IMG/VR virus record: IMGVR_UViG_3300019854_000029
Coordinates: 56,360-120,359 of that record
Length of the DNA: 64,000 nt
Direction: 5' to 3' (one strand)
From: a virus
Shown here: positions 42,521-60,677 of the stretch, in pieces
How the letters are laid out: each line of letters opens with the position of its first letter
How positions within the stretch are numbered: position 1 is the first letter of the stretch
Made by a program: the position numbers and the translations under genes
The notes under the pieces: model-generated
Databases searched by the model: none
Seen by the model: the letters and a program-made list of their open reading frames with translations, nothing else
What the model was told of the DNA's origin: nothing

Positions 42521-43230
42521 AGGAGTTCTCCGGCGTTGATGAGGATTGCTGTGATGTTGTCGCTTTCCCCGTTCGCAATGGCCCTGCCTGCGAGGGTTTC
42601 AAGGCCGGTTTGCGCATTGCCGGGGAGGTAGTTGTTTTCTCGCTCAAACTCATGCCAGAACCCGTCCGAACACAGGAGGAAACTATCGCTGGCAGAGTAT
42701 TCACCGACGTAGGTGTCGGGTCGGGCTTTCTCACTGTTACGGTGGCCGAGGCCACGGGTGATGCTACTGCGGTATTTCGCGTGAATCTGGGGGGTGATTT
42801 CAACGCCGCGTTCACGTAGTTCAGCGAGTTTACTGTGGTCTCGGGTGAGTTGGAGGGCTTGGCTACCTGCTTTAAGCATGTATGCGCGCGAGTCTCCAAC
42901 ATGAACGATGGTGTAGCGGCCCATGTAAGCACGCAACACGGTCAGGGTCGTGTTCCCGGCTGCTTCGCGTGCTTTCTGGTGCGCGCGGGCGACAGCTTGG
43001 ACGAGTTGCCCGTCTGAGACGTTCCCGGTTGCTACGAGGTCGAGGAATGTTTGCCCCGCGCCGATGGACGCGAGGCGACCGTTGGGACCTTCACCACCAA
43101 CACCGTCTGCGACGAGCGCGACTATGCCGGTATGCCCTGCGGCCTCAAACAGTGCTGCCGCGTAACTGTCTTGGTTTTCTCGCCTGCCGTTAACGTTCGT
43201 GTAGGTGGAGACAATGTCGGTGATGCTCAC
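42517..43230 (-). CDS. PP2C-family Ser/Thr phosphatase
   Basis: NQDSY..., ALVADGVGGEGPNGRLAS, VHVGDSRAYM, LLCSDGFW, SDNITAILI. ATGA overlap with the kinase gene. Confidence 0.85.
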   Translation of the reverse strand: MSITDIVSTYTNVNGRRENQDSYAAALFEAAGHTGIVALVADGVGGEGPNGRLASIGAGQTFLDLVATGNVSDGQLVQAVARAHQKAREAAGNTTLTVLRAYMGRYTIVHVGDSRAYMLKAGSQALQLTRDHSKLAELRERGVEITPQIHAKYRSSITRGLGHRNSEKARPDTYVGEYSASDSFLLCSDGFWHEFERENNYLPGNAQTGLETLAGRAIANGESDNITAILINAGELL

Positions 43231-44318: not shown

Positions 44319-44323
44319 CGGTG

Positions 44324-44527
44324 TTAGTCCTTTTCCGTTTGGACGACGGTTAGGAGCTTTTCTGGGTCGATGTCAGCTTCCCTGTAGTACCAATGCCCTC
44401 CGGGGGACTGGTATGCGGTGAGTTTTCCTTGTCGAGTCCAGTTTTTAAGTGTCTCTCGACTGATTCCTAGTTTTTCGGCTGCTTCCGCGACGGTGAGCAG
44501 GCCCTCAAAAAGTTGTGCCATGCCCAC
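44324..44527 (-). CDS. Excisionase/MerR-type helix-turn-helix DNA-binding protein (67 aa)
   Basis: LLTVAEAAEKLGISRETLKNWTRQGKLTAYQSPGGHWYYREADID matches the excisionase-family HTH pattern. Confidence 0.7.
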   Translation of the reverse strand: MGMAQLFEGLLTVAEAAEKLGISRETLKNWTRQGKLTAYQSPGGHWYYREADIDPEKLLTVVQTEKD

Positions 44528-44569
44528 AATGTTAGCAACAGATGGTAGTGTTTTGCGGTTTTTGCAGTT

Positions 44570-45655
44570 TTAGGCGGCGACGGGTGTTTTCGCGAGGTGT
44601 TCGGCAACGAGAATGTTCGCCGCTGCGCCCACACGGCGGGGCGACATAGAGGGGTTAGCGGAGCGTACTTGCTCATAGAACATGTCGAACAGTCGGCTGC
44701 GTTCACGCGATTCTGCGTCCTCTTCGGCATCGAGCATGGCTTCTACGGCAGCGTCTTGCCTGCTGCGAGCTTCTTCTGCCTGCTTGCGGGCCGCTTCCTG
44801 CTTCTGGGCGGGCGACACGTCGGGGTTGATCTTGTTTTCCATGCGGAAACGGAGGAAAGCGAACATGTTATGCACGTTGGACGGCATACCCTCGCTGAGG
44901 ATTGACGCGATTTCTACGTGCATCCACCCGATGTTGAGGCGAGCTTGGACAAGCTGGTACATTTCCTCGATCTGCGTGTCAGTCCACGCTTCTACGCCCA
45001 CGCCTTGAGGCATACACGAGGCGACGATCTCACGCTTAGAACGCCCATTACGGGCACGGGCCTGCATCGCTGCTTCCGCTTTGAGAACACGTTCACGCTT
45101 ACGAGCATTCATACGCTTTTCGCGCTTACGGGCACGGGCTTCCTTAATCGCCGCGCGCTCTTCGCTAGTGGAGCGAACGTAGGCAACAGCGTCACGAACA
45201 GTGGAAGCAACCTGCTCAATGGGAGACTCGATCTCTTCCTCAGCAACAGGCTCAAGGAGAATAAGCTCAGGGGCTTGCGGTTCCCACGGGCCGAAACGGT
45301 TAATGGTTACAGGCTTACGGGTAGAGCCGTCATAACGGTAGCCTTCAAGCCACATTTCAATGGTCGGAATGTGAATCGTGTGTACTGCGCTAGTGCGGTG
45401 CTTCACGCCGCGAGCGTCCGTCCAGTACCGGTGCTGGGTGTGCATGAGACCGAGTTCCCTGAAGCGCTTGAGTACTTTCTCAAGGTAGCTTTTTGAGCAT
45501 CCGATCTCGCGGGACATCGTGTCTAGGCTCTTCCAAATCTGCCACGAGTTCTCGTTAGCGTTTTTAACGAGATAGAAGAGAATATCTTGTTCCTTGAACG
45601 TCATTGCGATGACGGTGACGATGCTTTTAGCTGCACGGATTAGTGCGCGGGACAT
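44570..45655 (-). CDS. Winged-helix DNA-binding protein (361 aa), candidate replication initiator or replication-relaxation protein
   Basis: AAGGAG RBS. The N-terminal domain ...SREIGCSKSYLEKVLKRFRELGLMHTQHRYWTDARGVKHRTSAVHTIHIPTIEMWLEGYRYDGSTRKPV is paralogous to 46181-46597. The function is inferred from architecture and position only. Confidence 0.4.
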   Translation of the reverse strand: MSRALIRAAKSIVTVIAMTFKEQDILFYLVKNANENSWQIWKSLDTMSREIGCSKSYLEKVLKRFRELGLMHTQHRYWTDARGVKHRTSAVHTIHIPTIEMWLEGYRYDGSTRKPVTINRFGPWEPQAPELILLEPVAEEEIESPIEQVASTVRDAVAYVRSTSEERAAIKEARARKREKRMNARKRERVLKAEAAMQARARNGRSKREIVASCMPQGVGVEAWTDTQIEEMYQLVQARLNIGWMHVEIASILSEGMPSNVHNMFAFLRFRMENKINPDVSPAQKQEAARKQAEEARSRQDAAVEAMLDAEEDAESRERSRLFDMFYEQVRSANPSMSPRRVGAAANILVAEHLAKTPVAA

Positions 45656-45750
45656 AAAAAATACTCCTTGGTATTAAGAAGAATCATTGCGTGCTTCATA
45701 GGCTATAGCCGCTCTCCCGGTCTGTCAAACACGGGGAGGAAAAAATTTTT

Positions 45751-45816
45751 AGGCCCAGTTGGAATGAACCAACCGGGCCTAACGCAAATTCTTCTTAACT
45801 CACGAGGAGTTAAGAA
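45751..45816. other. Two adjacent strong hairpins in the divergent intergenic region (ori/oriT candidate)
   Basis: AGGCCCAGTTGG (45751-45762) / CCAACCGGGCCT (45769-45780), 12 bp with 1 mismatch. TTCTTAACTC (45792-45801) / GAGTTAAGAA (45807-45816), 10 bp perfect. Confidence 0.6.
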
Positions 45817-46054
45817 AATAATCCCACGTAACCACAGTGTTTGCAACTGTTACCACGCGATTCCAGCTAAGAGTTTCCTGCAATCTGCCATGACGAGACC
45901 TTGACGCGCGCCACTACCTGTTCGCCAACTCTAAAAGCATTTGAGAAAATATTTCCCCCGCCGTTAGGCGGTAGATCTATCAGTCGCACTGCGTCCACAC
46001 ATGGGGGGAGGGGGTTATTCTTCATTATTCTTCTTCTATTCACTAAAGGTATAT

Positions 46055-46090
46055 ATAGTGCTCTTCCCTATAGTGCTCTTCCCTATAGTT
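46055..46090 (+). repeat. Tandem 15-bp direct repeat ATAGTGCTCTTCCCT x2.4, preceded by an AT-rich ATTCTTC-repeat tract
   Basis: Copies at 46055-46069 and 46070-46084, plus a partial copy at 46085-46090. The upstream 46016-46040 reads TTATTCTTCATTATTCTTCTTCTATTC. Confidence 0.8.
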
Positions 46091-46180
46091 CTACTCCGGT
46101 TTTACCAGTTGTCCCAATAAAAACACGCGACTAATCCGCCCCGTGTAAACACGTAACAACAGTCAGTAAGGAAGTACCCC

Positions 46181-46597
46181 ATGTGCGTACAACAGCTCAT
46201 CAACGCGGGTGAACTAGCTCCATATATCGGACTAAGGCCACGACTCACTAGGCTCTTAGAACTTCTTGCTAAATATGCCGGTGAAAAAACACAACAGCTT
46301 TGCTGTAGCCAAGAAACCCTCGCCGCGCACCTGTCATGCTCTGTTAGGACTATTTCTCGCGACCTTCACACGCTTTCGTCTCTAGGTCTCATCCACGTGC
46401 AGCCCCGGTACTTGGAGGATCGTAAGCACGTTAAGCACCGCACGACTGATGTCATCACGGTTCATATCCCTACCGTCGCTGAGTGGGACGCGGGCGTTCG
46501 CTATGACGGTTCTACTAGGCCAGCAATTAAAAACGCTAACTACTGGCGTGCTGGCGCTCCCGACATCATTGAAGTTCCTATGGCTCCCGAGAAATAA
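46181..46597 (+). CDS. Winged-helix DNA-binding protein (138 aa), paralog of the N-terminal domain of 44570-45655
   Basis: AAGGAAG RBS. ...LSCSVRTISRDLHTLSSLGLIHVQPRYLEDRKHVKHRTTDVITVHIPTVAEWDAGVRYDGSTRPA aligns with the Rep-like protein on the other side of the intergenic region. Confidence 0.6.
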   Translation: MCVQQLINAGELAPYIGLRPRLTRLLELLAKYAGEKTQQLCCSQETLAAHLSCSVRTISRDLHTLSSLGLIHVQPRYLEDRKHVKHRTTDVITVHIPTVAEWDAGVRYDGSTRPAIKNANYWRAGAPDIIEVPMAPEK

Positions 46598-46853
46598 ACA
46601 GACCCCCTCGCAACGCGAAACCTAATCGCACACAAACTAAGGGGCCGTTCGACACGAAACCGAACAGCCCCTGTAAGTATTACCTTTACCTTTCTAGTCG
46701 CCTCTGTAGCTTGTAGCAGATTAGGAAAAACTCTTACAAGTAGCTACACCGCGTTCTCATCGCTCAATGCGTGAACGGGCATCGAGATAAAAAGAACCGC
46801 CCGGCACGAAAACATCTTGAAAATAGCGCGCTAATATGCTTCGCTTCTATATA

Positions 46854-46926
46854 GCGGCTGTAGTTCAGTTGGTAGAGCACCCGGATATGGACCGGGAGGT
46901 CGCGGGTTCGAGTCCCGCCATCCGCG
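46854..46926 (+). tRNA. Atypical tRNA gene; anticodon reads AUG (His codon CAU) in a manual cloverleaf
   Basis: Acceptor GCGGCTG/CATCCGC (C5-U68 mismatch), D stem GTTC/GAGC, anticodon stem CCCGG/CCGGG with loop ATATGGA, variable AGGTC, T arm GCGGG-TTCGAGT-CCCGC, discriminator G, no encoded CCA. Confidence 0.6.
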
Positions 46927-46980
46927 CTGATGAAAGTCTCAAAGCCTTTGCAACGATTACAAGCAAAGACCGCTGTTCGC

Positions 46981-47385
46981 CTACATCTTTTTACCGGCTA
47001 GGGCCTCTAGCATCCGCAGCATTTCTTCTTCAGAGACCTCGGCTTCTTTTGCGATTGCCTTAAACTCCTCCGTGTTACCTGCGGCGTAGTCGAGGAGGAG
47101 CCGCGCACCTTTCGGGGTAATCTGCACCATTTCTTCGCAGCGGATACTCTCGTGGAAGGAATCGGGCAGTTCAATCCTTCCGCGTTTTTCGAGGCTGAGG
47201 AGCGCTTCGATCACATCATGTTCAGTACTGCCAATTACTCGCGCGATATCTTCCGGGTGGTCAAGGATGCGGGTGAACGAGCCAGTTGAGCCTCCGGTTA
47301 GATAGTAGAGGACTCTTTCTTCGACTGGCGAGAGCGGTGACTGTGGGCGGCGGGCGCGGTTTTTACGTGAGGGGCGCACTGACAT
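46981..47385 (-). CDS. Winged-helix (MarR/ArsR-like) transcription regulator (134 aa)
   Basis: LSPVEERVLYYLTGG...FTRILDHPEDIARVIGSTEHDVIEALLSLEKRGRIEL follows a wHTH pattern. It is divergent from 47543-47959. Confidence 0.45.
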   Translation of the reverse strand: MSVRPSRKNRARRPQSPLSPVEERVLYYLTGGSTGSFTRILDHPEDIARVIGSTEHDVIEALLSLEKRGRIELPDSFHESIRCEEMVQITPKGARLLLDYAAGNTEEFKAIAKEAEVSEEEMLRMLEALAGKKM

Positions 47386-47507
47386 TGAGGTTCCTTTTCT
47401 TGCGAAAGCGGTGTCTTTATTGAATGTTACGTGGCGTGTCAGTGAGGTTTCTAAACGCTAACTGCTTATTGCGAGAGGCTTGTGTTGAAACGAGTCAACG
47501 AATAGTG

Positions 47508-47536
47508 TTGCACGTTCCTATAACTGGTAGTATCAT
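47508..47536 (+). promoter_or_regulatory. Sigma-70-type promoter TTGCAC-N17-TATCAT, positioned for a leaderless transcript
   Basis: The -10 ends 6 nt before the ATG at 47543, so the expected start site falls at or next to the start codon. No SD is present. Confidence 0.5.
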
Positions 47537-47542
47537 GAGCGT

Positions 47543-47959
47543 ATGAGCCGAAACCGAAACCACACTAACCAGCAAATTAAAGCGTGGGTACTCGCCTACT
47601 ACAAGGCCTACGGATGCTGGCCCACCCAACGCGAAACGCGCGTCGCACTCCGATGCTCTATTGATCGCGCAGTCATTGCGATCAAGGAAGCTAAAAACGA
47701 CCTCGCTAACGGGGCGGAACAAAGGTTCGCTAAAGCCCTTGCCATATACGCCGGGTTCCGTAGCTTAGAGGACGCTTTTACACACATTGACACTTTGACC
47801 GAGAAGCCGGTAAGTCGCCAGAGAAAGAACGACCTGCGGGCCTTAGTCACAATCCTCACTGGCACTGCCCCAAGTTACAGCCTCACCAGCGAGGAGCTGC
47901 GCGACATAATCCGTGCCAATACCAAACCAACACCAATAACCAACACTGAACAGGAATAA
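47543..47959 (+). CDS. Hypothetical protein (138 aa), possible DNA-binding regulator
   Basis: First gene of the plus-strand accessory block. N-terminal QQIKAWVLAYYKAYGCWPTQRETRVALRCSIDRAVIAIKEAK is vaguely LexA-N/wHTH-like. Confidence 0.5.
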   Translation: MSRNRNHTNQQIKAWVLAYYKAYGCWPTQRETRVALRCSIDRAVIAIKEAKNDLANGAEQRFAKALAIYAGFRSLEDAFTHIDTLTEKPVSRQRKNDLRALVTILTGTAPSYSLTSEELRDIIRANTKPTPITNTEQE

Positions 47960-47963
47960 AACC

Positions 47964-48479
47964 ATGTCCCTGACAACTATCTTCTTCCCACCGCAGCCGG
48001 TGCTACTCGGTCTCACTATCGCGCTCCCAATTCTCGTGCTGGTCGCGTTCGTCTCGCGGAAGATCGCCGTAAATCTCAATGAGAAGCAAGAAGCGCCGTC
48101 CATCGCAGAAGTGATCTTGTATGGCATTTCCTCTGTCAGCAAGCTGCTGGTAGCGCCGCTCGCAGTGTACGTTCTCTACACTGGTGGGTTCTGGCTATTC
48201 ACGAACGCTAGTACCGATTTCTGCCACACACTTGGTCAAATCGGCAGAGTCTTGTTGGTACTACTTTTTGCAGCAGCTCTAGTTCTATCAGTTGTAGCGG
48301 CCTCCGTGGGTGCGGGGTTGCACAACATTGAGGCGGATGCAGAGCTTGAGGACTTGGAAAACAACCGCGAATACAAAGCCCTAAAGGCCATAGATAAGGC
48401 TCTTCCTCCCGTAGAGGTGCGCGTGAGCGCAGCTCTTGCTCTCGGCCCGCTTTTCTTTGCCATTGTCGCCGTATTTTAA
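47964..48479 (+). CDS. Small polytopic membrane protein (171 aa)
   Basis: About four hydrophobic helices. It starts 5 nt after the upstream stop. Confidence 0.6.
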   Translation: MSLTTIFFPPQPVLLGLTIALPILVLVAFVSRKIAVNLNEKQEAPSIAEVILYGISSVSKLLVAPLAVYVLYTGGFWLFTNASTDFCHTLGQIGRVLLVLLFAAALVLSVVAASVGAGLHNIEADAELEDLENNREYKALKAIDKALPPVEVRVSAALALGPLFFAIVAVF

Positions 48480-48499
48480 CCACTAAAGGACACTAAAAA

Positions 48500-48826
48500 A
48501 TGAGTCGCCGTAAATACACGAACCTGATGATCGTCACCTCGATCAAGCAGTTAATCTCTTCCCGCGTCTCGCGGCCCACACCTGAGCTTGTCGCTGAGAC
48601 AGAACGCTTCCTCAAACAGTGGCGTGACCCGGAAGAAATCGAACCAGCCGAAGGGCTACTTCTCAGCCGGGAAAAGCTCTATGCAATCCGCGCAGCCTAC
48701 AAGCGCAGTGGTTACGCGGGGCCGCTCATCGGCTTGTTCGACGAACTGGAACGCAACGTTGAGGCCGCTTTCAACGTCAAGCGAGGGAAGAAGGGACTAC
48801 CAGCATGGGTGCTAGGCGCGGCATAG
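48500..48826 (+). CDS. Hypothetical protein (108 aa)
   Basis: ATG preceded by AAAGGA. No motif recognised. Confidence 0.55.
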   Translation: MSRRKYTNLMIVTSIKQLISSRVSRPTPELVAETERFLKQWRDPEEIEPAEGLLLSREKLYAIRAAYKRSGYAGPLIGLFDELERNVEAAFNVKRGKKGLPAWVLGAA

Positions 48827-49284
48827 CCCGCGAACTCCACGCTTACAGTGCCGACAGTGAGTTCACTGACCTGCTGAAAGGCCGCTACATCACTGACATT
48901 GTTGACGATGAAATCCTCGTCCTCGACAACGGCATGTGGCTCCACATTCAGACAGAGAATGAGGACTGTAAGGGTGGCACGTTCATCCAGTACCTCAACA
49001 TTTGTGGCAGGAATGATGCGCGTATCATGTCCGCGCGCCTCGTCGATGACTACGAGGAAAACTCGCGCTCGTTCACCACAGATTTAGTGACATATACGTT
49101 GTTCGTCATGGTCAACGACATGGAACGCCCCGTCCTCAAAATCGCCCGAGAGGACGCGCCCTACTACCCGCGTGGCTTCACGATCACCGCCTACGTCTCC
49201 CAAGACGCTTACATAGATCGCTGGTACCACATGCGCGAACACTCCAACACGTCGAGCAGCCGTTTCAAGTGGCTGAAACGCTAA
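48805..49284 (+). CDS. Hypothetical protein (159 aa), paralog of the N-terminal domain of 54879-55943
   Basis: LLKGRYITDIVDDEILVLDNGMWLHI...DARIMSARLVDD...YTLFVMV...GFTITAYV aligns with LLRGRYVTSIDNDVITLDNGIELHI...KARIMSAYVDCD...YTIFVIV...GFTLTATI. Confidence 0.6.
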   Translation: MGARRGIARELHAYSADSEFTDLLKGRYITDIVDDEILVLDNGMWLHIQTENEDCKGGTFIQYLNICGRNDARIMSARLVDDYEENSRSFTTDLVTYTLFVMVNDMERPVLKIAREDAPYYPRGFTITAYVSQDAYIDRWYHMREHSNTSSSRFKWLKR

Positions 49285-49300
49285 ACCGAAAGCACCCAGA

Positions 49301-49780
49301 ATGTTTTTCCCTACGCTCGCGACAGAAACACGCATTTTCCTCACTGTGAGCATCATGCTCCTCGGACTAGCAGGCACACTATCGCTGGCAAACGTCTACC
49401 ACTTGTATGACCAGAAAGACGTGGCGTGGACGCTCAATAACTTCCACATGCCGCTTAATCTAACGAGCAAGATCACGGCGGTATTGATCTGGTTGGGAAT
49501 CGTCCTAAACGCAGTGTATCTAGTGCTAACGTACCGGACTAACGCGGGCGTGCCGGGAGAAAACCTGTCCCACATTTCCATGATCGCCGCGCTCACGTGT
49601 TTCGCTGTCCCGCCAGCGTTAACTCGGCTACTGATCGACCTCACCGCAAAGCGCAGTAAGCACGTGAAGCAGTGTTTCGAGTTCCCGAAATGGTTGAACT
49701 GGCTGGCTTACGCGCCCTCCGTCATCATCACAACAGCAGCGTATGTGACTCTCTGGTTCGCATACCTGCACGAAATCTAA
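49301..49780 (+). CDS. Small polytopic membrane protein (159 aa)
   Basis: Four hydrophobic helices. Confidence 0.6.
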   Translation: MFFPTLATETRIFLTVSIMLLGLAGTLSLANVYHLYDQKDVAWTLNNFHMPLNLTSKITAVLIWLGIVLNAVYLVLTYRTNAGVPGENLSHISMIAALTCFAVPPALTRLLIDLTAKRSKHVKQCFEFPKWLNWLAYAPSVIITTAAYVTLWFAYLHEI

Positions 49781-49811
49781 ACCAAACAAAACCCGGAAAG
49801 GACAACCAATC

Positions 49812-50300
49812 ATGACTCTCTCTGTTAAGCGTCGTGACGACATTCGCGTCTCTAATCTCGTTGAGATGCTGCCGCTCATCGAAATTCCGGACACCGAACC
49901 GCTGTGGGACGACCTAAAGAAAGCGCGTCTAATCGACTCAATCTTGAACAATATTCCCATCGGCCAGATTTTCCTCATGCCCCATCCGCGTCAAACCATC
50001 GGCCCAAGCGGCTGGGCGTATGAGTATCGGATTCTCGACGGCCACGACCGACTCAACGCCATTGCAGACTTCGTGAACGGAAACCTCCTATTGGAGGACG
50101 ACTTCAAGCTCTTTGAGAATGAGTTCGTCCAAGCGCGAGGAATGACGTTCAAGGACCTCAAGGAGGCATATCCGAGGCTTGCAACGCGCTTCGTGAACTA
50201 CCAGCTCGATATTCAGGTCGTTGAAGCGAGTAGCAAGCTCGAAATCGCCCGCATGTTCGAGCGAATGGGCATCGACAGTTACTGTTTTGGACGAGAGTAG
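49812..50300 (+). CDS. DUF262 (ParB/GmrSD N-terminal)-like protein, 162 aa
   Basis: ...WDDLKKARLIDSILNNIPIGQIFLM...YRILDGHDRLNAIADFVNG... matches the DUF262 pattern with DGQQR changed to DGHDR. No DUF1524 partner domain is present. Confidence 0.5.
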   Translation: MTLSVKRRDDIRVSNLVEMLPLIEIPDTEPLWDDLKKARLIDSILNNIPIGQIFLMPHPRQTIGPSGWAYEYRILDGHDRLNAIADFVNGNLLLEDDFKLFENEFVQARGMTFKDLKEAYPRLATRFVNYQLDIQVVEASSKLEIARMFERMGIDSYCFGRE

Positions 50301-50360
50301 ACAAGGGGAGCCGTCGTGAGAGATCGCGGCGGTCCTCTTGGTTTTGCTGCTAAAAGACAT

Positions 50361-50399
50361 TTGCTTGCACGCTGCCATACTGCTACAATTTAGGTACAC
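50361..50399 (+). promoter_or_regulatory. Promoter module copy P5 (TTGCTT-N17-TACAAT followed by TTAGGTACAC), the best copy
   Basis: Near-consensus -35/-10 with TGc as an extended -10. The core GCCATACTGCTACAATTTAGGTACAC (50374-50399) is shared with five other operon heads. Confidence 0.65.
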
Positions 50400-50460
50400 G
50401 GCTAGTGTAAAGAAAGCCGATAAACTCAATCCACGCAAACCACATAAAGGCAATAAGACC

Positions 50461-50682
50461 ATGAGCGACACCCCCAAGCCCGAGCGCCACATCGAGGTAA
50501 AACTCATTAACTCAGGCCGCGTCCTCCGCACTCAAGCACTAGGTGAATACGCCGACAAGATGTTCGATTCTATGATGAGGAGCATTCTTAACCTGTCCAT
50601 GCTCCACGGCCCAGCGTGCGACCTGGGGGACATTTTTATTCCGGCTCACGCTATCGAGTGGATTGAAATCGTCGAGGATTAA
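50461..50682 (+). CDS. Small protein (73 aa), paralog of 51889-52128
   Basis: I use the ATG at 50461 (MSDTPKPERHIEVKLINSGRVLRT...HAIEWIEIVED). It aligns with MYHIEIGIIGSSRVIRT...HAVAWVQIVKD. The ORF-track start at 50338 lies upstream of the promoter. Confidence 0.6.
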   Translation: MSDTPKPERHIEVKLINSGRVLRTQALGEYADKMFDSMMRSILNLSMLHGPACDLGDIFIPAHAIEWIEIVED

Positions 50683-50713
50683 AAAGTGAACGCGGCAAGT
50701 AGTTGCCGCAAAT

Positions 50714-50786
50714 GCTCCTATAGCTCAACTGGCAGAGCAACGGACTTTTAATCCGTGGGTTCAGGGTTCAAGTCCCTGTGGGAGCA
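50714..50786 (+). tRNA. tRNA-Lys (anticodon UUU)
   Basis: Acceptor GCTCCTA/TGGGAGC (one G-U), D arm GCTC-AACTGGCA-GAGC, anticodon stem ACGGA/TCCGT with loop CTTTTAA, variable GGGTT, T arm CAGGG-TTCAAGT-CCCTG, discriminator A followed by CC. Confidence 0.85.
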
Positions 50787-50831
50787 CCGCCACAAACCAA
50801 AACATAAAACAACAACAGGAAAGAGAAGATC

Positions 50832-51326
50832 ATGGACTACTACACGACACTCAGGCGCGAAACCGTTAAATCAGCTCGCTTTGACCCGCTTATTTTCTTA
50901 TATGCACACCTCGGGGATGAAGGCGCGTTCGACGGTCACGTTTTCTCTCCTAACCTAAAAAACGTTCCGGTACTCATGCGTCTAACAAACGACGACCACA
51001 TTTCCTTGTCCATCACCGAGTGGTACGACGAAATAAGCGTTTTTGATAAGCACACAAGCACGGCGCACAGTACCCCAGTTGAAAGCGGAGAACTTCTGTG
51101 GGAATTTGACGGCGATGCTTGGGAACGCAGCGACTACATGCCAGACAGTGCAGAACGATTCTCGGAGGAAATTATGATCGCCAACGCCCTCAGTGATTGG
51201 GAAAACCTCGTATGCAGGCTCGACGCTCGCAAAGGCCCGGAAGAACACGCATGGTTCTTCCCGCTCGGACTTGAATCGGCCTCAAAGCACCCGGGGCTGA
51301 TGATGTACACCAGTAACCGAAACTAA
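50832..51326 (+). CDS. Hypothetical protein (164 aa), paralog of 51360-51860
   Basis: MDYYTTLRRETVKSARFDPLIFLYAHLGDEGAFDGH...AWFFPLGL... versus MDYQTLKRDTIEQARRDPASFLYAMLGKEGAFDGH...AWFFPVGL... Confidence 0.65.
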   Translation: MDYYTTLRRETVKSARFDPLIFLYAHLGDEGAFDGHVFSPNLKNVPVLMRLTNDDHISLSITEWYDEISVFDKHTSTAHSTPVESGELLWEFDGDAWERSDYMPDSAERFSEEIMIANALSDWENLVCRLDARKGPEEHAWFFPLGLESASKHPGLMMYTSNRN

Positions 51327-51359
51327 CAGCCCAGAAAACGCGGAAAGAAAACCAGACCA

Positions 51360-51860
51360 ATGGACTACCAGACACTCAAACGCGACACTATCGAACAGGC
51401 CCGCCGAGACCCCGCTAGTTTCCTGTACGCAATGCTCGGGAAAGAAGGCGCATTTGACGGCCATGCTCCCGCCTCATCAGTGGGCTACCAGCCGACGATC
51501 ATGCATGTAGTGGACGACGGCGACCACGTTTCACTATCTGTCACCGTATGGAAAGAAGCAAAGTTTCTTACTTTCGAGAAAACCACATACAAAGCACACA
51601 GCGTGCTAAGCGAAAACGGGGCGATTTCATGGGAGTTCGACGAGCGTACCTGCGCCCGTGGCTATGACTACGAATACAACGAGGCAGAACGCTTTACGGA
51701 CAAGCTCATCCTCGGTGAAGCCTTCAGCGAGTGGGAGGACCTTGCGAATAGCGTCGCGGCCCGCGAAGATTCCCAAGAATACGCATGGTTCTTCCCTGTC
51801 GGGCTAAATGCAGCATTTAAGCTCTCGGGCATGACAATGTTCGCCAGTAACCAAAACTAA
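51360..51860 (+). CDS. Hypothetical protein (166 aa), paralog of 50832-51326
   Basis: See the previous feature; roughly 40 percent identity by eye. Confidence 0.65.
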   Translation: MDYQTLKRDTIEQARRDPASFLYAMLGKEGAFDGHAPASSVGYQPTIMHVVDDGDHVSLSVTVWKEAKFLTFEKTTYKAHSVLSENGAISWEFDERTCARGYDYEYNEAERFTDKLILGEAFSEWEDLANSVAAREDSQEYAWFFPVGLNAAFKLSGMTMFASNQN

Positions 51861-51888
51861 CAACGGAGAGGAACACGGAGGCTAAACA

Positions 51889-52128
51889 GTGAACAGTGAA
51901 AGCGAAAACATGTACCACATTGAGATTGGAATTATCGGCTCAAGCCGCGTCATTCGCACTTTGTCAATGGAACAGTACAAAGCAAACGTTAAGTATGCTG
52001 ACATCTGCTATGGCATCTCGTGCAGGCGTGGAATATTTGAGATTTGTGAGGATGGGTCTCGCGTTTCTATTCCAGATCACGCCGTCGCGTGGGTGCAAAT
52101 CGTAAAAGACGAAGAACAAGCAGACTAG
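51889..52128 (+). CDS. Small protein (79 aa), paralog of 50461-50682
   Basis: GTG start preceded by GGAGG at 7 nt. Confidence 0.6.
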   Translation: MNSESENMYHIEIGIIGSSRVIRTLSMEQYKANVKYADICYGISCRRGIFEICEDGSRVSIPDHAVAWVQIVKDEEQAD

Positions 52129-52182
52129 CTATAGAACATAGGCCATACGAAAAAACAGCCACACCAAGCAAGGAAGGCGATC

Positions 52183-52614
52183 ATGCACACCTACTACGCA
52201 AACAAAGTCCGTCACCAATTACAAGACGTGCTACGCATGACCGATGCAAACCCGGCATTTGTGACAGCTTGGGCAGAGGCCATAGCCTATGCGGCAAGGA
52301 ATGAGGGTGACACTCTTACGGCTCGCCGCATTGAGCATCATGGCGTATTGGTCGATAGAGATGGAACGATCTACGGCTACACGGAATCAACGCCGCTCGT
52401 AGGTGAACTTGGAAGTATTAGGTGGAGCGGCTACACGCTCACGCCAGAGACATGCTTAGCAATTGGGGTATCTCCTACACGACGCATAAGCGCAGGTCGC
52501 GGCTACTGGTTCAAGCACCCCAATCTCGCAGGAGGCCGCTCGCTCGCACACGTGAAGTTCTCCGAGGTCGGTATGGGGTCAGCCCTTGATGAACGAGGCA
52601 AGCTGAGGCGGTAG
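52183..52614 (+). CDS. Hypothetical protein (143 aa)
   Basis: ATG preceded by AAGGAAGG. No motif recognised. Confidence 0.6.
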   Translation: MHTYYANKVRHQLQDVLRMTDANPAFVTAWAEAIAYAARNEGDTLTARRIEHHGVLVDRDGTIYGYTESTPLVGELGSIRWSGYTLTPETCLAIGVSPTRRISAGRGYWFKHPNLAGGRSLAHVKFSEVGMGSALDERGKLRR

Positions 52615-52617
52615 TAA

Positions 52618-53142
52618 ATGCATATCACGCTAGTAGCCGCGCTCACTGTCGCGATGGTGGTTTGCCTGTTAATCTCACTCGCCACTGAGGAAGCAGCCAA
52701 CAGGCTAGAGGAAAATGCGGAAGCACATGTTAAAAGCGAAACAGCGTTACGTGTCGCCCACTTTCTTGCTTACGCGGCAGCGGTCCTCATCCTCCCCGTG
52801 CTATTGATATTGCTCATTGACGAAAACCTCCCATTGAGTCCAAGCGAGGAAACGCTAGGAAACGCAGGTAATCGTGGGAACGTTTTCTTGCAACTACTGT
52901 GCGCAGCAGGAATCGCGCTTCTTGCGTCTGATGTTGCGGTCCACAATCGCGCGTTGAAAGAAAAGCGGCCCCGAGTTTTTCGTGTCCTAACCAACGTGCG
53001 TGAGGTATGCGGAGTGGTGGTCGTTGCGGCAATTGCCGGACTTGTTGCTTGGTACATATCGGACACACTCATACAGTGCCTGATCGACACGCACGAAAAG
53101 TTTTCACAAAGCATCAGCCAATACTGCAAAGGCGCGTGCTAA
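52618..53142 (+). CDS. Small polytopic membrane protein (174 aa)
   Basis: Four hydrophobic helices. It starts 4 nt after the upstream stop. Confidence 0.6.
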   Translation: MHITLVAALTVAMVVCLLISLATEEAANRLEENAEAHVKSETALRVAHFLAYAAAVLILPVLLILLIDENLPLSPSEETLGNAGNRGNVFLQLLCAAGIALLASDVAVHNRALKEKRPRVFRVLTNVREVCGVVVVAAIAGLVAWYISDTLIQCLIDTHEKFSQSISQYCKGAC

Positions 53143-53193
53143 CACAACACGCTTAACCCAATCCATCAGACCAAACCAGAGGAGCACACTGAA

Positions 53194-53589
53194 ATGGGCG
53201 CATTGATTAGTACAGTCGTATGGGTTGCGATAACTCTACTAGGAGTATTTGTTCTTGTTAATACCGTAGCTTCAGTACGTAATGGTGATACTGATGCCGT
53301 GCGTAATGGGCTTCTGCTGGACATCGTGTATTTGCTCTTACTGTTGCTACTAAAGATGTACGGCCCGACCGTGCAATGGGGAGAAAGCATTGAAGAAGTA
53401 AAAACGTTCTTTGCCCAACATCTAGTTTTTACCACCGTTTGCATGTGGACGGTTTTCCTACTAGAAGCGTTCGCTTTCGTTGATTTCTTTGTCGCAGCCC
53501 ACCGCACTGACCCAAAGAGGCTAAAACGCGACGTTTATTTGTTGCTCTTTACAGGGCTGCTTTCAGTGTTGCTACTTAGCACCATGTAA
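53194..53589 (+). CDS. Small polytopic membrane protein (131 aa)
   Basis: Four hydrophobic helices with a GAGGAG RBS. Local GC is ~40-47 percent in the two 60-nt lines I counted. Confidence 0.6.
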   Translation: MGALISTVVWVAITLLGVFVLVNTVASVRNGDTDAVRNGLLLDIVYLLLLLLLKMYGPTVQWGESIEEVKTFFAQHLVFTTVCMWTVFLLEAFAFVDFFVAAHRTDPKRLKRDVYLLLFTGLLSVLLLSTM

Positions 53590-53646
53590 CTAATCGCTTT
53601 TAAGACAAGCACTCTTCCCTAGTGCGACGGAAAGAAGATACCGAAA

Positions 53647-53880
53647 ATGCGTGATTTTGTTATCACCTATCCGGCGGTCAGTATTGCCGCTGGCCTCACG
53701 CTGCTTACAGCAATGGTGCTTAGCGATGTGGCGATCATGGCACCGTTCTGGTTCTCAGAAAAACGGCTGAAAACATTCACTCGCTGTTTGACTGTTAGTC
53801 GCGTCGCGGCAGTGGCTACTGCTCTGGTTTTCGCTATCGCATTTTTCGCGTTCACAGTAAATAAGCTCATCCAAGGCTAG
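53647..53880 (+). CDS. Small membrane protein (77 aa)
   Basis: Two hydrophobic helices. Confidence 0.55.
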   Translation: MRDFVITYPAVSIAAGLTLLTAMVLSDVAIMAPFWFSEKRLKTFTRCLTVSRVAAVATALVFAIAFFAFTVNKLIQG

Positions 53881-53899
53881 AGGAAGGAAGGGCCTCGAA

Positions 53900-54247
53900 A
53901 TGTTTACCGCTGTTATCCTCACCGCTACCGGTATCGTGTCCGTGTTCTTTATGTGTATGGCCTACGCTGCGAACACTGACAGTAAGACGAATGCTTACGA
54001 GATCGCGTGCTCTGTCACCGTCATCGCTGGCGTAACGATCATGGTCTACTTCCAAGCTGCCATGCACCTACACCACATGGCAGCTTACGACCTAGCGTCC
54101 ATTGTCATGCTTACAAGCGCCACAGCATTGGTCTTAAAGCGCCCCATTAAAGGCGATCTAACCGTTTTGGGACTGCGTGCCGCGATCCTCGTCATCTGTC
54201 TACCGGCAATCGCCTGCCTCCTGCTCAGCTTCAGTATCCACGTCTAA
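53900..54247 (+). CDS. Small polytopic membrane protein (115 aa)
   Basis: Three to four hydrophobic helices, with GGAAGGAAGG upstream. Confidence 0.6.
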   Translation: MFTAVILTATGIVSVFFMCMAYAANTDSKTNAYEIACSVTVIAGVTIMVYFQAAMHLHHMAAYDLASIVMLTSATALVLKRPIKGDLTVLGLRAAILVICLPAIACLLLSFSIHV

Positions 54248-54308
54248 CCCGAGACGACGAAACAAAAAATAAAGAAACTAACCTAACAACCATCGAAAGG
54301 ACCGCTTT

Positions 54309-54404
54309 ATGCAGCGCTTACTGCCCGCCCTAATCGCTGACCTGCTCCTATGCCTACTCCTTCCCTCATACGTCATCTTTATCGTCATTCACAATCTTCT
54401 TTGA
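54309..54404 (+). CDS. Possible 31-aa hydrophobic peptide, not in the ORF track
   Basis: MQRLLPALIADLLLCLLLPSYVIFIVIHNLL, with AAAGGA 8 nt upstream. It continues the run of membrane proteins. Confidence 0.3.
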   Translation: MQRLLPALIADLLLCLLLPSYVIFIVIHNLL

Positions 54405-54441
54405 TCTAAGCCACGCCAAAGCGCACAAAAGGAGGTGCCTT

Positions 54442-54855
54442 ATGGTTACGAAAACCGTGCGGCGTGTGGCCCTCATGTCCATTCACCCGCGCTACGCGCA
54501 CGCTATCCTCGACGGGCGCAAAGCCGTTGAGTTCCGTAAGCGTCCTCTCGCTTCTGACGTGTCGCATGTCGTTGTTTACTCCACGGCTCCCGATCAGAAA
54601 GTTCTTGGCTACTTTGAGATCGACAAGCAGGTTGAGCTGTCTCCCGAAGCCTTGTGGGAACAATACGGAAACCAAGGAATCATCGAGAAAGACCGTTTCT
54701 TCTCCTACTACGAGGGCAGAGAAACAGGCGTGGGCATCCTAGTTAAGCGAGTATTCCGGTGTGAACAGTCGCGTTCTTTAAGTGACATCGGCGTGGCAAC
54801 GCCGCCCCAAAGTTTCCAGTACCTCTCTGAGGACGCACTACAAGTTCTCGCTTAA
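54442..54855 (+). CDS. ASCH (PUA-like) domain protein
   Basis: VALMSIHPRYAHAILDGRKAVEFRKRP...HVVVYSTAPDQKVLGYFEI follows the ASCH N-terminal pattern. AAGGAGG RBS. Confidence 0.6.
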   Translation: MVTKTVRRVALMSIHPRYAHAILDGRKAVEFRKRPLASDVSHVVVYSTAPDQKVLGYFEIDKQVELSPEALWEQYGNQGIIEKDRFFSYYEGRETGVGILVKRVFRCEQSRSLSDIGVATPPQSFQYLSEDALQVLA

Positions 54856-54878
54856 AACCTGATTAAGGACCGACCAAC

Positions 54879-55943
54879 ATGACCACCAGAGAAATCACGC
54901 TAAACCAGAGCAGTAGCGACGGCTTCTACACGAAGCTCCTTCGAGGCCGCTACGTCACCAGCATCGACAACGATGTAATTACCCTCGATAACGGGATAGA
55001 ACTCCACATTTGGGGTAACGACGGCTGCATGAACTGCGCGAACGGCAGCTATTGGCTCGAACAGGTTTTCAAGCGCGGCAGTAGCAAAGCGCGCATCATG
55101 AGCGCCTACGTGGACTGCGACGAAGATGACGGAAACCCCTCAACCGTGTACACGATTTTCGTGATAGTGGACGGAAACCCCCATCACCTGCCTCTCGCAA
55201 CCGTCAGGGGTGATGACGGTAATGGCTACTACGGCACCGGGTTCACGCTCACTGCCACCATTGAAACATCCTCAGCGCCGCCCACCACGGTCACGCCCCG
55301 TGACATTATCAACGCGGTCGCGGGCGGGAAAACACCCCCGCCTATCCCCGGTATTTCTGACCGCGAAAGCCTTCTCAACGCTGTTGCCTACACTATCCAG
55401 CAAACGCGAGGCTTCGACTCACCTCTACGCATTACCGGCCCCGAAGCTCAGCTTTTCCACAAGCTAACCGCTGTCCCATACGGCGGGCAGTATGGTCCTT
55501 ACTACGCGCTCAATTGGAGTGGCTTTAATCAAAAAACCCTGTTCTGGTTCGCTGACATGGAGGACGGCGTATCTTTCGTCCTGCGTGATCTCTCCAACGG
55601 GACGGAAGCCTACGCCGCGAAACTACGCGCCTTCACAGACCGAGTGCGCGCTTCCGAGGGCGCCATTAAGACTTTCGTCACCGACTACGCGCTGAAGGGT
55701 AATACGGCCACCATCAACGGAGTCCGAGTGCCCGCCACCGACTTCCTTCTCTCTGAAGTTTGCGGCTTCCACGGGAACAAAATTGGCCCCAAGTGGACCT
55801 ACATCCACGACTACTACTTCTTTAGCTACGCGAGCTACAGTGCGCGCATTATTAAGCATCGTGAAGGTGGGCGCGGAGACGTTGTGATCTGGTCAGACTC
55901 CCAGAACGTGTGGGCAGTAAACCCGCAAGTAAGCCGTTCGTAA
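54879..55943 (+). CDS. Hypothetical protein (354 aa); its N-terminal domain is paralogous to 48805-49284
   Basis: See 48805-49284. The C-terminal ~200 aa are unique. Confidence 0.65.
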   Translation: MTTREITLNQSSSDGFYTKLLRGRYVTSIDNDVITLDNGIELHIWGNDGCMNCANGSYWLEQVFKRGSSKARIMSAYVDCDEDDGNPSTVYTIFVIVDGNPHHLPLATVRGDDGNGYYGTGFTLTATIETSSAPPTTVTPRDIINAVAGGKTPPPIPGISDRESLLNAVAYTIQQTRGFDSPLRITGPEAQLFHKLTAVPYGGQYGPYYALNWSGFNQKTLFWFADMEDGVSFVLRDLSNGTEAYAAKLRAFTDRVRASEGAIKTFVTDYALKGNTATINGVRVPATDFLLSEVCGFHGNKIGPKWTYIHDYYFFSYASYSARIIKHREGGRGDVVIWSDSQNVWAVNPQVSRS

Positions 55944-55950
55944 CTAAAAA

Positions 55951-55992
55951 ACTGAAGCGCCCTCACGGAATGTCTTGTGGGGGCGCTTCAGT
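55951..55992. terminator. Bidirectional terminator between convergent blocks
   Basis: 12-bp perfect stem ACTGAAGCGCCC (55951-55962) / GGGCGCTTCAGT (55981-55992), with an A-run on the 5' side. Confidence 0.7.
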
Positions 55993-56034
55993 ATCCATCC
56001 GAGAGTGGTTGGCTCTCTGTTATGAGTCTACCGA

Positions 56035-57579
56035 TTATTTTGCTGCGAGGACCTTGAACCACACGGGGTTCATGTCTCTGGGGAAGTCGCTTCCCCAAAT
56101 CAGGTAGAGGCTTTCTAGGCGCGTCGAGGATGTCCATGACTCTAACTGTCCACTCTCGCCGGGTTTGAGCGTGAGAGACGTTTTCAGGCCGTACACGGTG
56201 CCTGTGCGGACGCTTACTGTCCGGTTAGCGTCTACGAGAGCGTCCCTACTGGTAATAGTCACCTCCTTGTCGGAGAGGTTACGCACCGTGAAAGCGTAGT
56301 AAGCGTATTTCACGTCGCTGGTCGGGCTGAATCCACGGTTCTGTTCGCTCTTTTGTTCCATGATTTGATGAGCGTCTGTTCCGATCACGAACTTTGAGAG
56401 CGTCACTTCGATGGGCTGTTTCTGGTCGCCGTCAATGTAGCTGGTGACAATCGGCGTGCCTAAGCCTGCTGGCTGGTTGAATGAGCCGTCTCCTACGTGC
56501 GGCATTACAGCGCCGTCCGTACTGGTTTCCATCTTGTGAGCGCCAATCCACGGTTCGAGATACCTGTTCGCGTCGAACTTACGTTCACCGTTGTTGGGAA
56601 CGATCTGAATCGTCTCATGCTTAGCGTCGAGGATAGACGCGGCTTGTTCAGCGAACTGGTCTTGCAACGAGGACAGTTCAGGCGCGGCAAACAACGTGTC
56701 GTCCATGTACACGTCCTCATCAGTGGACAAGGCGCACGAGGACTTCACGCCCACACCATTGCACGTGAACGCGGGCGCACGGTTCACGGTTTTCGTCGGC
56801 AAATCGCTCTGCGCGGCAATGTAGGAAGCGAAAGCGTCCGTGAGCTTCTTCTGATACTCCACGTCTTTCGCATCCTGCAAACCGGCGGCTGCGAGAGCGG
56901 TTTTCACTTGGGACACGTCGAGCTTGATCTTGCTGTAATCCACGACCTGTAGGCTCACGCTTTCCCCGTTGTTCAGCGTGGACGGGGCTTGAGTGATCTT
57001 CCACGTGAACGGGCTGCGGTGCGCGGTGTTTCTCCACGTGAGCTGCGGACTGTCAGGCACAGAGTAAGACACCGCGCCGGTAATGGCCTGCACGGCTTTA
57101 ATGCGCGTCTGATTACCGTTCAAGTACGCGGATTCTTTCGCAACATACGAGTCGGGGATAACCGAGTTCAACCCGTCAGCGTTAAACCCAGCGAGAGCCG
57201 TCATGTACGCGCTGTACGAGGTGATACCACGGTTCTCGGCGGGAATGTCTTTCACCGGGGGAACGAGGAAACCGAAATAGAACGCGAGCACGCTCAGGGT
57301 CGCGGTCCCCGCAATGACGGGACGCGCCCACCGACGCTTCTTTTTAGGTTTCGTCTGTTGGCCCCATGCTGCGCCGCCGAGACCGACCTGCCCCATAGCT
57401 TCACCCCACGACTGGGTTTGAGTGGGGGCGGGTTCACCCCACCCTCCGGTGTCACTGTTACCCCACGCGGGGGTGGTGGTTTGGTTTGCGGGGGCGGGTT
57501 CTTCACCCCAGCCGCCGCCCCAGCTTTGAGGCTGTGGGCTTCCGGTGGGTTCCATGCCCCACCCGTAATCGTTACTCAT
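56035..57579 (-). CDS. Single-pass membrane protein (514 aa): disordered GW-rich cytoplasmic N-terminus and a large extracytoplasmic domain
   Basis: Repeated GWG/SWG motifs, TM segment VIAGTATLSVLAFYFGFLV, and a beta-rich C-terminal domain. Confidence 0.6.
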   Translation of the reverse strand: MSNDYGWGMEPTGSPQPQSWGGGWGEEPAPANQTTTPAWGNSDTGGWGEPAPTQTQSWGEAMGQVGLGGAAWGQQTKPKKKRRWARPVIAGTATLSVLAFYFGFLVPPVKDIPAENRGITSYSAYMTALAGFNADGLNSVIPDSYVAKESAYLNGNQTRIKAVQAITGAVSYSVPDSPQLTWRNTAHRSPFTWKITQAPSTLNNGESVSLQVVDYSKIKLDVSQVKTALAAAGLQDAKDVEYQKKLTDAFASYIAAQSDLPTKTVNRAPAFTCNGVGVKSSCALSTDEDVYMDDTLFAAPELSSLQDQFAEQAASILDAKHETIQIVPNNGERKFDANRYLEPWIGAHKMETSTDGAVMPHVGDGSFNQPAGLGTPIVTSYIDGDQKQPIEVTLSKFVIGTDAHQIMEQKSEQNRGFSPTSDVKYAYYAFTVRNLSDKEVTITSRDALVDANRTVSVRTGTVYGLKTSLTLKPGESGQLESWTSSTRLESLYLIWGSDFPRDMNPVWFKVLAAK

Positions 57580-57617
57580 GGGTTGTCCTCACTCTTTGGT
57601 TTAGCGTTTCGTTTCGA

Positions 57618-59358: not shown

Positions 59359-59380
59359 GGTTTCACCACCTTTCTGGGAA

Positions 59381-59430: not shown

Positions 59431-59445
59431 GGCTAGGGGGAAGGC

Positions 59446-60621: not shown

Positions 60622-60677
60622 ATTTCATTTGCCTTTCTGGGCTGACAACGGTCTGTTGTAATCTAATAATACTTGTG

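Follow-up and report, generated by a model that had tools for sequence, protein, structure and literature searches.

Results

The P5 locus and its carrier element

The DNA analyzed here, referred to as the window, is a stretch of 64,000 nucleotides from an IMG/VR record. A promoter-like module of about 26 bp is located at 50374-50399 on the plus strand, and this copy, called P5, is surrounded by the following features:

50310-50333, plus strand: terminator of the operon before P5, a hairpin with a T-rich tail, 40 nt before P5
50361-50399, plus strand: P5, with the -35 hexamer TTGCTT (50361-50366) and a 17-nt spacer that contains GCCAT (50374-50378) and a TG
50384-50399, plus strand: the -10 hexamer TACAAT (50384-50389) of P5, and TTAGGTACAC across the predicted +1 (A at 50396)
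50461-50788, plus strand: first products of the P5 unit, a 73-aa ORF (50461-50682) and a tRNA-Lys(UUU) gene (50714-50788)

The pairing of the terminator stem upstream of P5 was kept through changes on both arms in related elements. In 2 of the relatives (L047 and L042), unrelated sequence took the place of the window DNA ahead of P5, with homology resuming just before the -35 hexamer. It was also noted that some relatives (L047) contained an additional tRNA gene just upstream of P5, and that the window encodes a second tRNA (46854-46927, plus strand), which was called as His with the unusual anticodon AUG.

IMG/VR classifies the carrier as viral, and it has been seen only in metagenomes, among them samples from the Human Microbiome Project. 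The relatives used for comparison were L032-L063, L068-L091, and L198-L204. Related contigs of 117-130 kb were circular permutations of one another with a GC content of about 56%, and the carrier looks like a circular, conjugative, plasmid-like element of roughly 120 kb.

Scans against Pfam and PHROGs identified genes in the window for an LPXTG/T-Q-ester adhesin, an FtsK/SpoIIIE protein, a DUF87/VirB4-like ATPase, an NlpC/P60 hydrolase, a secreted membrane protein of 1596 aa, a trio of Ser/Thr kinase, PP2C and FHA proteins, a winged-helix replication-like protein, a ParM/Alp7A-like partition ATPase, SpoVG, and several small HTH proteins, while most other ORFs had no domain match. Only 11 homologs of the VirB4-like ATPase were found among 5.8 billion protein clusters, none of which was from an NCBI genome. 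The best PLSDB matches of the VirB4-like protein (31%) and of the Ser/Thr kinase (32%) were both located on plasmid pXO16 of Bacillus thuringiensis, with which the element shares the gene order YdjM-like, giant membrane protein, VirB4-like, FtsK-like, SpoVG. The carrier contained the pXO16-type conjugative gene set, consisting of the DUF87 ATPase, FtsK/SpoIIIE, the giant membrane protein, the YdjM-like protein, and SpoVG. The conjugation system of pXO16 has been described as a distant relative of type IV secretion systems (PMC6199540).

The host probably belongs to the Actinomycetota, as suggested by 3 markers: an LGFP-repeat protein that matched only plasmids from Actinomycetota, a single-stranded DNA-binding protein (SSB) for which the best host-labelled matches were actinophage proteins (2 unannotated human-fecal phage contigs scored slightly better), and the LPXTG anchor of the adhesin, which is listed as an actinobacterial host marker. 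The kinase, PP2C, and FHA genes (40814-44318, minus strand), which were also counted among the actinobacterial host markers of the carrier, are located directly downstream of the genes for the replication-like protein and a 67-aa HTH_17 protein. Since the best PLSDB match of the kinase was on pXO16, these signalling genes seem to be characteristic of the family.

An iteron-like array of about 8 repeats of (T)TCYTGGTYATRDA was identified at 4420-4660 on the plus strand, within 640 nt of non-coding DNA that follow a strong terminator (4375-4416). The entire segment of ~556 bp (4440-4995) was duplicated at 87-92% identity at the opposite side of the window, with the second copy extending from about 63946 past the window end (L050 8273-8826, L062 5755-6308). 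The array is a candidate for the centromere of the ParM-like system or for origin iterons.

Six copies of the module in the window

The initial annotation had described 6 sites in the window as a promoter module reused at operon heads, in which a -10-like hexamer is followed by a conserved box. All 6 were present with the letters exactly as quoted, and the hexamer and the box were confirmed in each of them, at module positions 11-16 and 17-25, respectively. Besides P5 (50374-50399), the sites and their surroundings are:

1530-1568, plus strand: terminator upstream of P1, a hairpin after the LPXTG/T-Q-ester adhesin gene
1657-1695, plus strand: P1, with the -35 hexamer GTGACA (1657-1662), an N17 spacer with TG and the -10 hexamer TACTAT (1680-1685); module at 1670-1695 (quoted as 1670-1696)
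10691-10716, minus strand: P2, with the -10 hexamer CATAAT; its first base completes the stop codon of the GmrSD_C gene (10716-11462)
10642-10508 and 10444-9896, minus strand: genes headed by P2, a 44-aa ORF and a 182-aa gene
22284-22309, minus strand: P3, with the -10 hexamer TATAAA or TAAAAT, between the NlpC/P60 gene and a 331-aa gene (start 22225)
33126-33151, minus strand: P4, with the -10 hexamer GATAAT, heading a unit that starts at 33089
60678-60703, minus strand: P6, with the -10 hexamer GATAAT, heading the ParM/Alp7A-like partition gene (60621-59446)

The pattern GCCATNNNNNNANNANTNNGGYACA gave 5 matches in the window versus 0 in 100 dinucleotide shuffles. In a weight-matrix scan of the window the 6 sites scored 35-44 bits (33-44 bits overall) and the next best site 14.2 bits, as compared to maxima of at most 9.2 bits in 20 Markov shuffles. 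All 6 sites were oriented in the sense direction of the next gene, and the -35 boxes that had been reported for P1 and P5 were found at the expected distance (GTGACA-N17-TACTAT and TTGCTT-N17-TACAAT). The distance to the first start codon, previously given as 45-105 nt, was similar in our measurements, 36-100 nt from the module end.

The next best site in the scan with the first matrix (12100-12125, minus strand, 14.2 bits) was rejected as a seventh copy. It is antisense to the 3' end of a real plus strand gene, in which 44 of 62 substitutions affect codon position 3, and it scored below 10 bits with a matrix built from 10 sites. This gene (11579-12109, 176 aa, no domain match) is the lone plus strand gene within a long minus strand block, with convergent orientation, and is located between the SpoVG terminator and the GmrSD_C gene. 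Nor could we recover the degenerate relatives suggested at 6400-6420, 4976-4993, and 36095-36112: none was within the top 30 matrix scores, and the 11-mer TAGGCTACGAA, common to 2 of them, was not significant. A scan of the window with the generic sigma-70 consensus was unhelpful, with counts at or below those in shuffles and only P1 flagged.

The description of the sites as 6 operon heads applies to P1 and P5, which are located behind terminators; the hairpin upstream of P1 has undergone a compensatory G/T to C/A change in relatives. The overlap with stop codons reported for P2, P4, and P6 was confirmed, the first base of the P2 module being the G of a TAG stop. P3 occupies a gap of 64 nt between genes of the conjugation cluster and is not preceded by a terminator; its orthologs were conserved in 6 of 6 cases. 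Since P2, P4, and P6 are placed on the 3' ends of co-directional genes and P3 in a gap of the conjugation cluster without a terminator, these 4 sites are predicted to be internal promoters rather than terminator-bounded operon heads. The genes downstream of P1, which had been labelled as a recombination module, were without detectable domains.

The P4 module contains the last 4 codons and stop (GCC ATT ATC CGA TAA) of the gene at 33137-33964 on the minus strand, and the P6 module likewise those (GCC ATT AAC CGA TAA) of the gene at 60689-61525 on the same strand, with the TAA stop at module positions 13-15 in both cases. The 2 upstream genes are unrelated, yet both end with A-I-I/N-R-stop (33137-33151 and 60689-60703, minus strand), and the genes downstream of P4 and P6 are unrelated to each other as well. 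The presence of the same module codons at the ends of unrelated genes indicates that the module does not travel with a duplicated gene. At P4 and P6, the module is either grafted onto coding 3' ends or constrains them.

Further copies in related elements

By walking round the circular element in the relatives, 5 additional sites were identified outside the window:

P7: upstream of a tRNA-Ser(GCU) gene, at a distance of about 100 nt; a Ro60/TROVE-vWA gene comes next
P8: 3.6 kb upstream of P1, ahead of adhesin genes
P9: starts right after a stop codon
P10: present in one variant only, heads a TnpB-like gene
P11: overlaps the 3' end of the upstream gene

The 6 sites first described thus represent a partial count, with 10 sites in a typical full-length element and 11 kinds of paralogous sites in all, each of which is in sense orientation to the downstream gene. 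Because P7 precedes the gene for tRNA-Ser and P5 the gene for tRNA-Lys, the signal is expected to act on transcription and not on translation.

The P7 locus corresponds to L050 305-2231, about 8 kb beyond coordinate 64000, and its tRNA-Ser(GCU) gene is 92 nt long. Bacterial Ro60 genes usually adjoin genes for Y RNAs with tRNA-like domains; the only Rfam match of the P7-headed RNA gene beside the Ro60/TROVE-vWA gene was "tRNA". The variant module at P10, TCCATAGTGCTACAATTTCGGTACAC, heads a TnpB/OrfB_IS605-like gene at L088 15980-17344 (IMG/VR 7000000653_000010), where a 1532-aa gene has been replaced. Another relative contained a pair of genes for an IS607-type resolvase and TnpB (L085 2121-3991). 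We also observed that the 9-mer AGTGGCCTA is located equally far upstream of P1 and P7, at about -63 to -55 (window 1614-1622, plus strand; L085 20385-20393), with AGTGGCTGG as its counterpart at P9. The 9-mer may be left over from a common origin or may serve as an additional upstream element.

Anatomy of the module

The module starts with GCCAT at positions 1-5, followed by the -10-like hexamer at positions 11-16 (TACAAT, TACTAT, CATAAT, TATAAA, and, twice, GATAAT) and by TTAGG-T-ACA at positions 17-25. If the hexamer serves as the -10 element, A-11 would correspond to position 12 and T-7 to position 16, and the A of position 23 is predicted as the most likely transcription start. This would place GCCAT at -22 to -18, TTAGG-T-ACA at -6 to +3, and GGTACA at -3 to +3. 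A-11 was present in all 11 paralogs and T-7 in 10, the exception being P3 with TATAAA, for which TAAAAT is an alternative register. The positions -1/+1 read T/A. The bases invariant in the 11 paralogs were CCAT, A12, A15, G21, and A23-C24, while the canonical sigma contact T-12 was a T in only 6 of the 11. The shared operator proposed in the initial annotation agrees with this pattern, in that the most conserved positions (CCAT at -21 to -18, G at -2, AC at +1/+2) are located outside the normal sigma contacts.

At a distance of 16-18 nt, -35-like hexamers were identified in P1 and P8 (GTGACA), P5 and P7 (TTGCTT), and P10 (TTGATG), and the -35s of these 5 sites were conserved in the orthologs. 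P11 contained TTGATA at 15 nt, and none of the sites P2, P3, P4, P6, and P9 among the 11 had a -35-like hexamer at 15-18 nt. A TG was found at -15/-14 in P1, P5, P8, P9, and P10, and a weak A-tract near -44 to -41. This anatomy fits the pattern of the actinobacterial housekeeping sigma-A factor: in Corynebacterium glutamicum, 97% of start sites have TAnnnT but only 28% a weak ttgnca -35 (PMC3890552).

The paralogs were divided into the subfamilies {P1, P5, P9}, {P3, P7, P11}, {P4, P6}, and {P2, P8, P10}. Even the variable spacer bases are common within subfamilies, as exemplified by ACTGCTAC in P1/P5/P9, TTAnCCGATAATT in P4/P6, and ACTCC in P3/P7/P11, but from one subfamily to another the spacer is nearly randomized, unlike the boxes. 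The subfamily structure suggests that the module has spread by duplication or conversion.

No dyad symmetry was detected: in a consensus reading, the left half matched the reverse complement of the right half at 3 of 13 positions, which does not agree with a palindromic operator of the KorA type. The resemblance to several other known sites was also rejected. The DtxR/IdeR box TTAGGTTAGCCTAACCTAA is a 19-bp palindrome made of 2 TWAGGTWAG half-sites, of which the module contains only one half-site-like TTAGGTA, with no second box downstream. The statistics likewise gave no support for a second TAGG-like box 11-13 nt downstream (combined p = 0.42). For the sigma-28/FliA promoter, TAAA-N15-GCCGATAA, we found CCGATAA only in P4 and P6, neither of which has TAAA 15 nt upstream, and the other 9 sites were without the motif. 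The resemblance to the CATA motifs of sporulation sigma factors fails a defining feature, and the idea of a GTAC or methylation site was discarded, as each box alone is not enriched in the element.

An RNA-level role as a structured RNA is excluded: the RNAalifold energy was -0.36 kcal/mol with 0 compensatory pairs and no covariation, the only pairing found in the module was 3 bp (GCC with GGT), and the tRNAs were the only Rfam matches. It is also highly improbable that the module serves primarily as something other than a promoter, be it a site of recombination or processing, an RNA structure, or a binding site of the centromere or iteron type. The replacement of the flank exactly at the P5 module and the TnpB-like gene behind the variant copy P10 could be taken in favour of such roles; however, all alignments were colinear, with no inversion or deletion between modules in any relative, the real iteron arrays at 4420-4660 look different, and no RNA fold was found. 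Such roles would also leave the fixed -10 register, the -35 and TG elements, and the strict sense orientation unexplained. The promoter part of our interpretation is well supported, because of the orientation, the fixed -10 register, the -35 and TG elements at the intergenic sites, the preceding terminators, and the tRNA product.

Conservation and distribution of the module

Among the relatives, 5 of 182 module columns were variable (2.7%), versus 201 of 697 (29%) in the non-coding sequence next to it (Fisher p = 2e-17) and 24 of 180 in coding upstream flanks, in a set that had been gathered with the motif pattern and is therefore biased. For this reason, the census was repeated with the flanks as anchors, and 138 of 141 orthologous sites were intact. 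The exceptions were one P1 with GCCGT and two P6 with GACACA instead of GGTACA, a variant represented by contig ERZ773015 NODE-11. Since the ParM-like gene was intact in the P6 lineage that has lost the 3' box, this box is not indispensable. Changes in the orthologs were confined to positions that are degenerate among the paralogs too (13, 14, 19, 22, and 26). These comparisons indicate strongly purifying selection on the module, with part of the conservation attributable to shared ancestry, since all carriers are close relatives with nucleotide identities of 85-97%.

A search for the strict motif in 185,579 species genomes yielded 31 singleton matches and no genome with more than one. Because about 35 matches are expected by chance, as estimated from the degeneracy of the pattern and the size of the collection, we consider the 31 matches as background. 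In IMG/VR and metagenomes, the contigs with multiple matches all belonged to a single family, 85-97% identical to the window. The more distant relatives L065 (37% identity in VirB4), L066, and pXO16 contained neither this module nor one of their own in the 22-42 kb scanned of each, where the genes are packed without internal gaps; the best score in the 42 kb of pXO16 was 10.8 bits. In L065, a scaffold from the Human Microbiome Project, many copies of the octamer (A)GGGTATT(C/G) were seen within the conjugation genes, on their coding strand (1-22454); it may be a strand-skewed oligomer. A nucleotide search of PLSDB with window positions 44000-64000 gave no match, and we found no account of pXO16-like elements or of such a module in the literature. 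As judged from these searches, the module is specific to one element family known only from metagenomes.

The earlier interpretation as a whole was thus borne out with regard to the promoter-like character and element specificity, for which the constant orientation, the fixed register of the -10, the purifying selection, and the absence, beyond chance matches, from cellular genomes all argue, but not with regard to the scope of operon heads, the recombination label, and the degenerate relatives.

The same data bear on whether a dedicated factor is needed at all. The module could be a plain promoter cassette for the housekeeping sigma factor, copied by duplication, gene conversion, or recombination at module boundaries and kept as a strong promoter, with boxes that are spacer and start features suiting the host polymerase. 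We consider this doubtful, although the subfamilies that are alike even in variable spacer bases, the mosaic junction right at the P5 module, the persistence of the P6 variant without the 3' box, and the failure to find a regulator among 108 ORFs would all be expected of such a cassette, as would T-1/A+1, which is a general start-site preference. The conservation is the reverse of what sigma contacts predict, however, with CCAT (-21 to -18) and G-2 more conserved than T-12 or the -35, and the boxes have been kept between subfamilies with near-random spacers. Host chromosomes should also carry the composite if it merely suited the host polymerase, yet no species genome has more than one match.

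Discussion

A promoter core with a proposed site for an element-encoded factor

We propose that the modules are promoters for the housekeeping sigma factor in which two flanking boxes form an asymmetric site recognized by a factor of the element itself, most likely a repressor, and judge the chances of this explanation to be about even. Where transcription starts, that such a factor exists and whether it represses or activates, and that the operons are co-regulated, are inferences. That the strongest conservation falls outside the sigma contacts and that the module is absent from cellular genomes suggest a specific, element-encoded partner. The location of the boxes over the -10 and start, together with 5 copies that look strong on their own, favours a repressor, by analogy with RP4 KorA and the R388/RP4 networks, although the lack of dyad symmetry makes a classical dimeric helix-turn-helix repressor unlikely.

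According to this model, each module would provide the promoter core for the host RNA polymerase with its housekeeping sigma factor, while (G)CCAT (about -22 to -18) and (T)TAGG-T-ACA (-6 to +3) would form one asymmetric composite site, at which a putative bound repressor would occlude the -10 and the start point. Roughly 10 operons with genes for conjugation, ParM-like partition, a surface adhesin, accessory functions, and tRNAs would then form one regulon, which would be silent in established hosts and expressed in a burst after entry into a new cell. The intergenic copies P1, P5, P7, P8, and P10 would be complete, strong promoters with a -35 and, in all but P7, a TG, whereas P2, P4, P6, P9, and P11, located on the 3' ends of upstream genes, would be reduced to the -10 plus the boxes and serve as boosters within transcription units.

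Among the 108 ORFs scanned, which come from all but about 1.4-4.6 kb of the element, depending on the contig, and many of which had no domain match, we identified neither a sigma factor or RNA polymerase nor a regulator tied to the motif. The only trace of a sigma factor was a sub-threshold region-4 match in the 67-aa HTH_17 protein. The candidate binders are the HTH_17 (44324-44527, minus strand), HTH_36 (46181-46597, plus strand), and other HTH (46981-47385, minus strand) proteins encoded at 44.3-47.4 kb, SpoVG (12285-12578, minus strand), and an HU-like protein (30765-31247, minus strand), and none of their own promoters carries the module. The short ORFs that come first behind P2 (10642-10508) and P5 (50461-50682) are further candidates. 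SpoVG from Staphylococcus aureus prefers TAATT(T/A), which is similar to ATAATTT in some modules; this motif is AT-rich and generic, the specificity of SpoVG differs between species, and SpoVG remains only a candidate. Two other options were dismissed. The 1596-aa protein is not a hidden RNA polymerase, with its signal peptide and transmembrane segments, no DxDGD motif, and no relative in PDB. A promoter for a single-subunit RNA polymerase of the phage type, which would be conserved contiguously from about -17 to +6 and have neither -35 nor TG, is at odds with the conserved -35 and TG and with the lack of a polymerase among the 108 ORFs.

The boxes might alternatively be read by an element-encoded activator or sigma-like factor that replaces the -35 at P2, P3, P4, P6, and P9, so that the modules would be "late" or transfer-competence promoters, as in SetCD/AcaCD regulons or with phage-encoded sigma factors. 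With 5 of the 11 sites lacking a -35-like hexamer at 15-18 nt, and 4 having a base other than T at -12, these copies would be weak on their own, and the 4 internal sites in the window without a recognisable -35 might need an activator. Direct readout by a polymerase or sigma factor requires a contiguous, asymmetric site with a set orientation, which is what we observe, and the regulator genes at 44.3-47.4 kb are without the module, as expected of a master switch. We nevertheless regard such a factor as unlikely, given that the 108 ORFs encode no sigma-70 region 2 or 4 domain above threshold and no RNA polymerase, that -22 to -18 and -6 to +3 are unusual activator positions, and that P1, P5, P7, P8, and P10 look strong unaided. 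The likeness of P4 and P6 to sigma-28 promoters (CCGATAA) comes without a TAAA -35 and is absent elsewhere.

A more unusual variant would be that the module is the recognition sequence of an unfamiliar specificity factor, encoded by an orphan gene, and at the same time a portable joint for the swapping of operons between relatives. The role as a joint was suggested by the flank replacement at the -35 of P5, the module-encoded codons in 2 unrelated genes, and the TnpB-like gene under the variant module. We think this quite improbable; if true, the plasmid would be transcriptionally self-contained.

Comparison to known regulatory systems

The stoperators of mycobacteriophage L5 and other cluster A phages are asymmetric sites of about 13 bp, present in many copies with transcription-locked orientation and bound by a single element-encoded repressor; they have no -10 hexamer coupled to them and act mostly by blocking elongation. 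The modules are likewise asymmetric, multi-copy, and locked in orientation, but every copy contains a promoter core. In SXT/R391 and IncC elements, one master factor, SetCD or AcaCD, acts on boxes at many transfer-gene promoters. These activator boxes replace the -35, whereas the boxes studied here flank the -10 and the start. To our knowledge, an asymmetric operator that brackets the -10 is not a textbook arrangement.

A further parallel is found in the IncP-1 plasmid RK2/RP4, where KorA with its operator OA, together with KorB/TrbA, also makes use of one cis element at many core promoters. The operator of RP4 KorA is present at 7 promoters (PMC2665229), as compared to about 10 modules in the element studied here, and operons for replication/partition, transfer, and accessory functions are joined in one circuit, as in the proposed regulon. 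However, OA, a perfect palindrome of 12 bp, is recognized by a helix-turn-helix repressor that binds as a dimer, while the module is asymmetric, about 26 bp long, and brackets the -10, with a binder that is only putative; the KorA system is found in Proteobacteria and the present host is probably an actinobacterium. R388 and RP4 have repressor-only networks, in which plasmid-encoded repressors control strong promoters (PMC3937220), and the IncW plasmid R388 resembles our proposal in that strong promoters are held down and give a burst after transfer (PMC3937220), which for the element studied here is proposed only. In R388, 6 repressors act on different operators, rather than a single type of module at about 10 promoters. 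The nearest described relative of the conjugation genes, pXO16 (350 kb; PMC6199540), is a Bacillus plasmid with a GC content of 34%, for which no promoter module has been described.

The reuse of one cis element at many plasmid promoters is thus known from RP4 KorA and the design of R388. What appears to be new is the sequence of the module, the asymmetric bracket round the -10, and the carrier, an actinobacterial relative of pXO16 known from metagenomes only. The arrangement suggests that one plasmid factor may switch the genes for transfer, partition, adhesin, and tRNAs together.

The carriers are a family of ~120-kb conjugative elements that recur in metagenomes, with an uncultured host and mostly domain-less genes. 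For these elements the 26-bp module offers an experimental handle: it delimits transcription units, allows co-regulated genes to be predicted, and can serve as bait in the search for the regulator. Should the boxes prove to be an operator, they would represent an actinobacterial counterpart of the "global repressor" design of RP4 and R388, built on an asymmetric site that brackets the -10.
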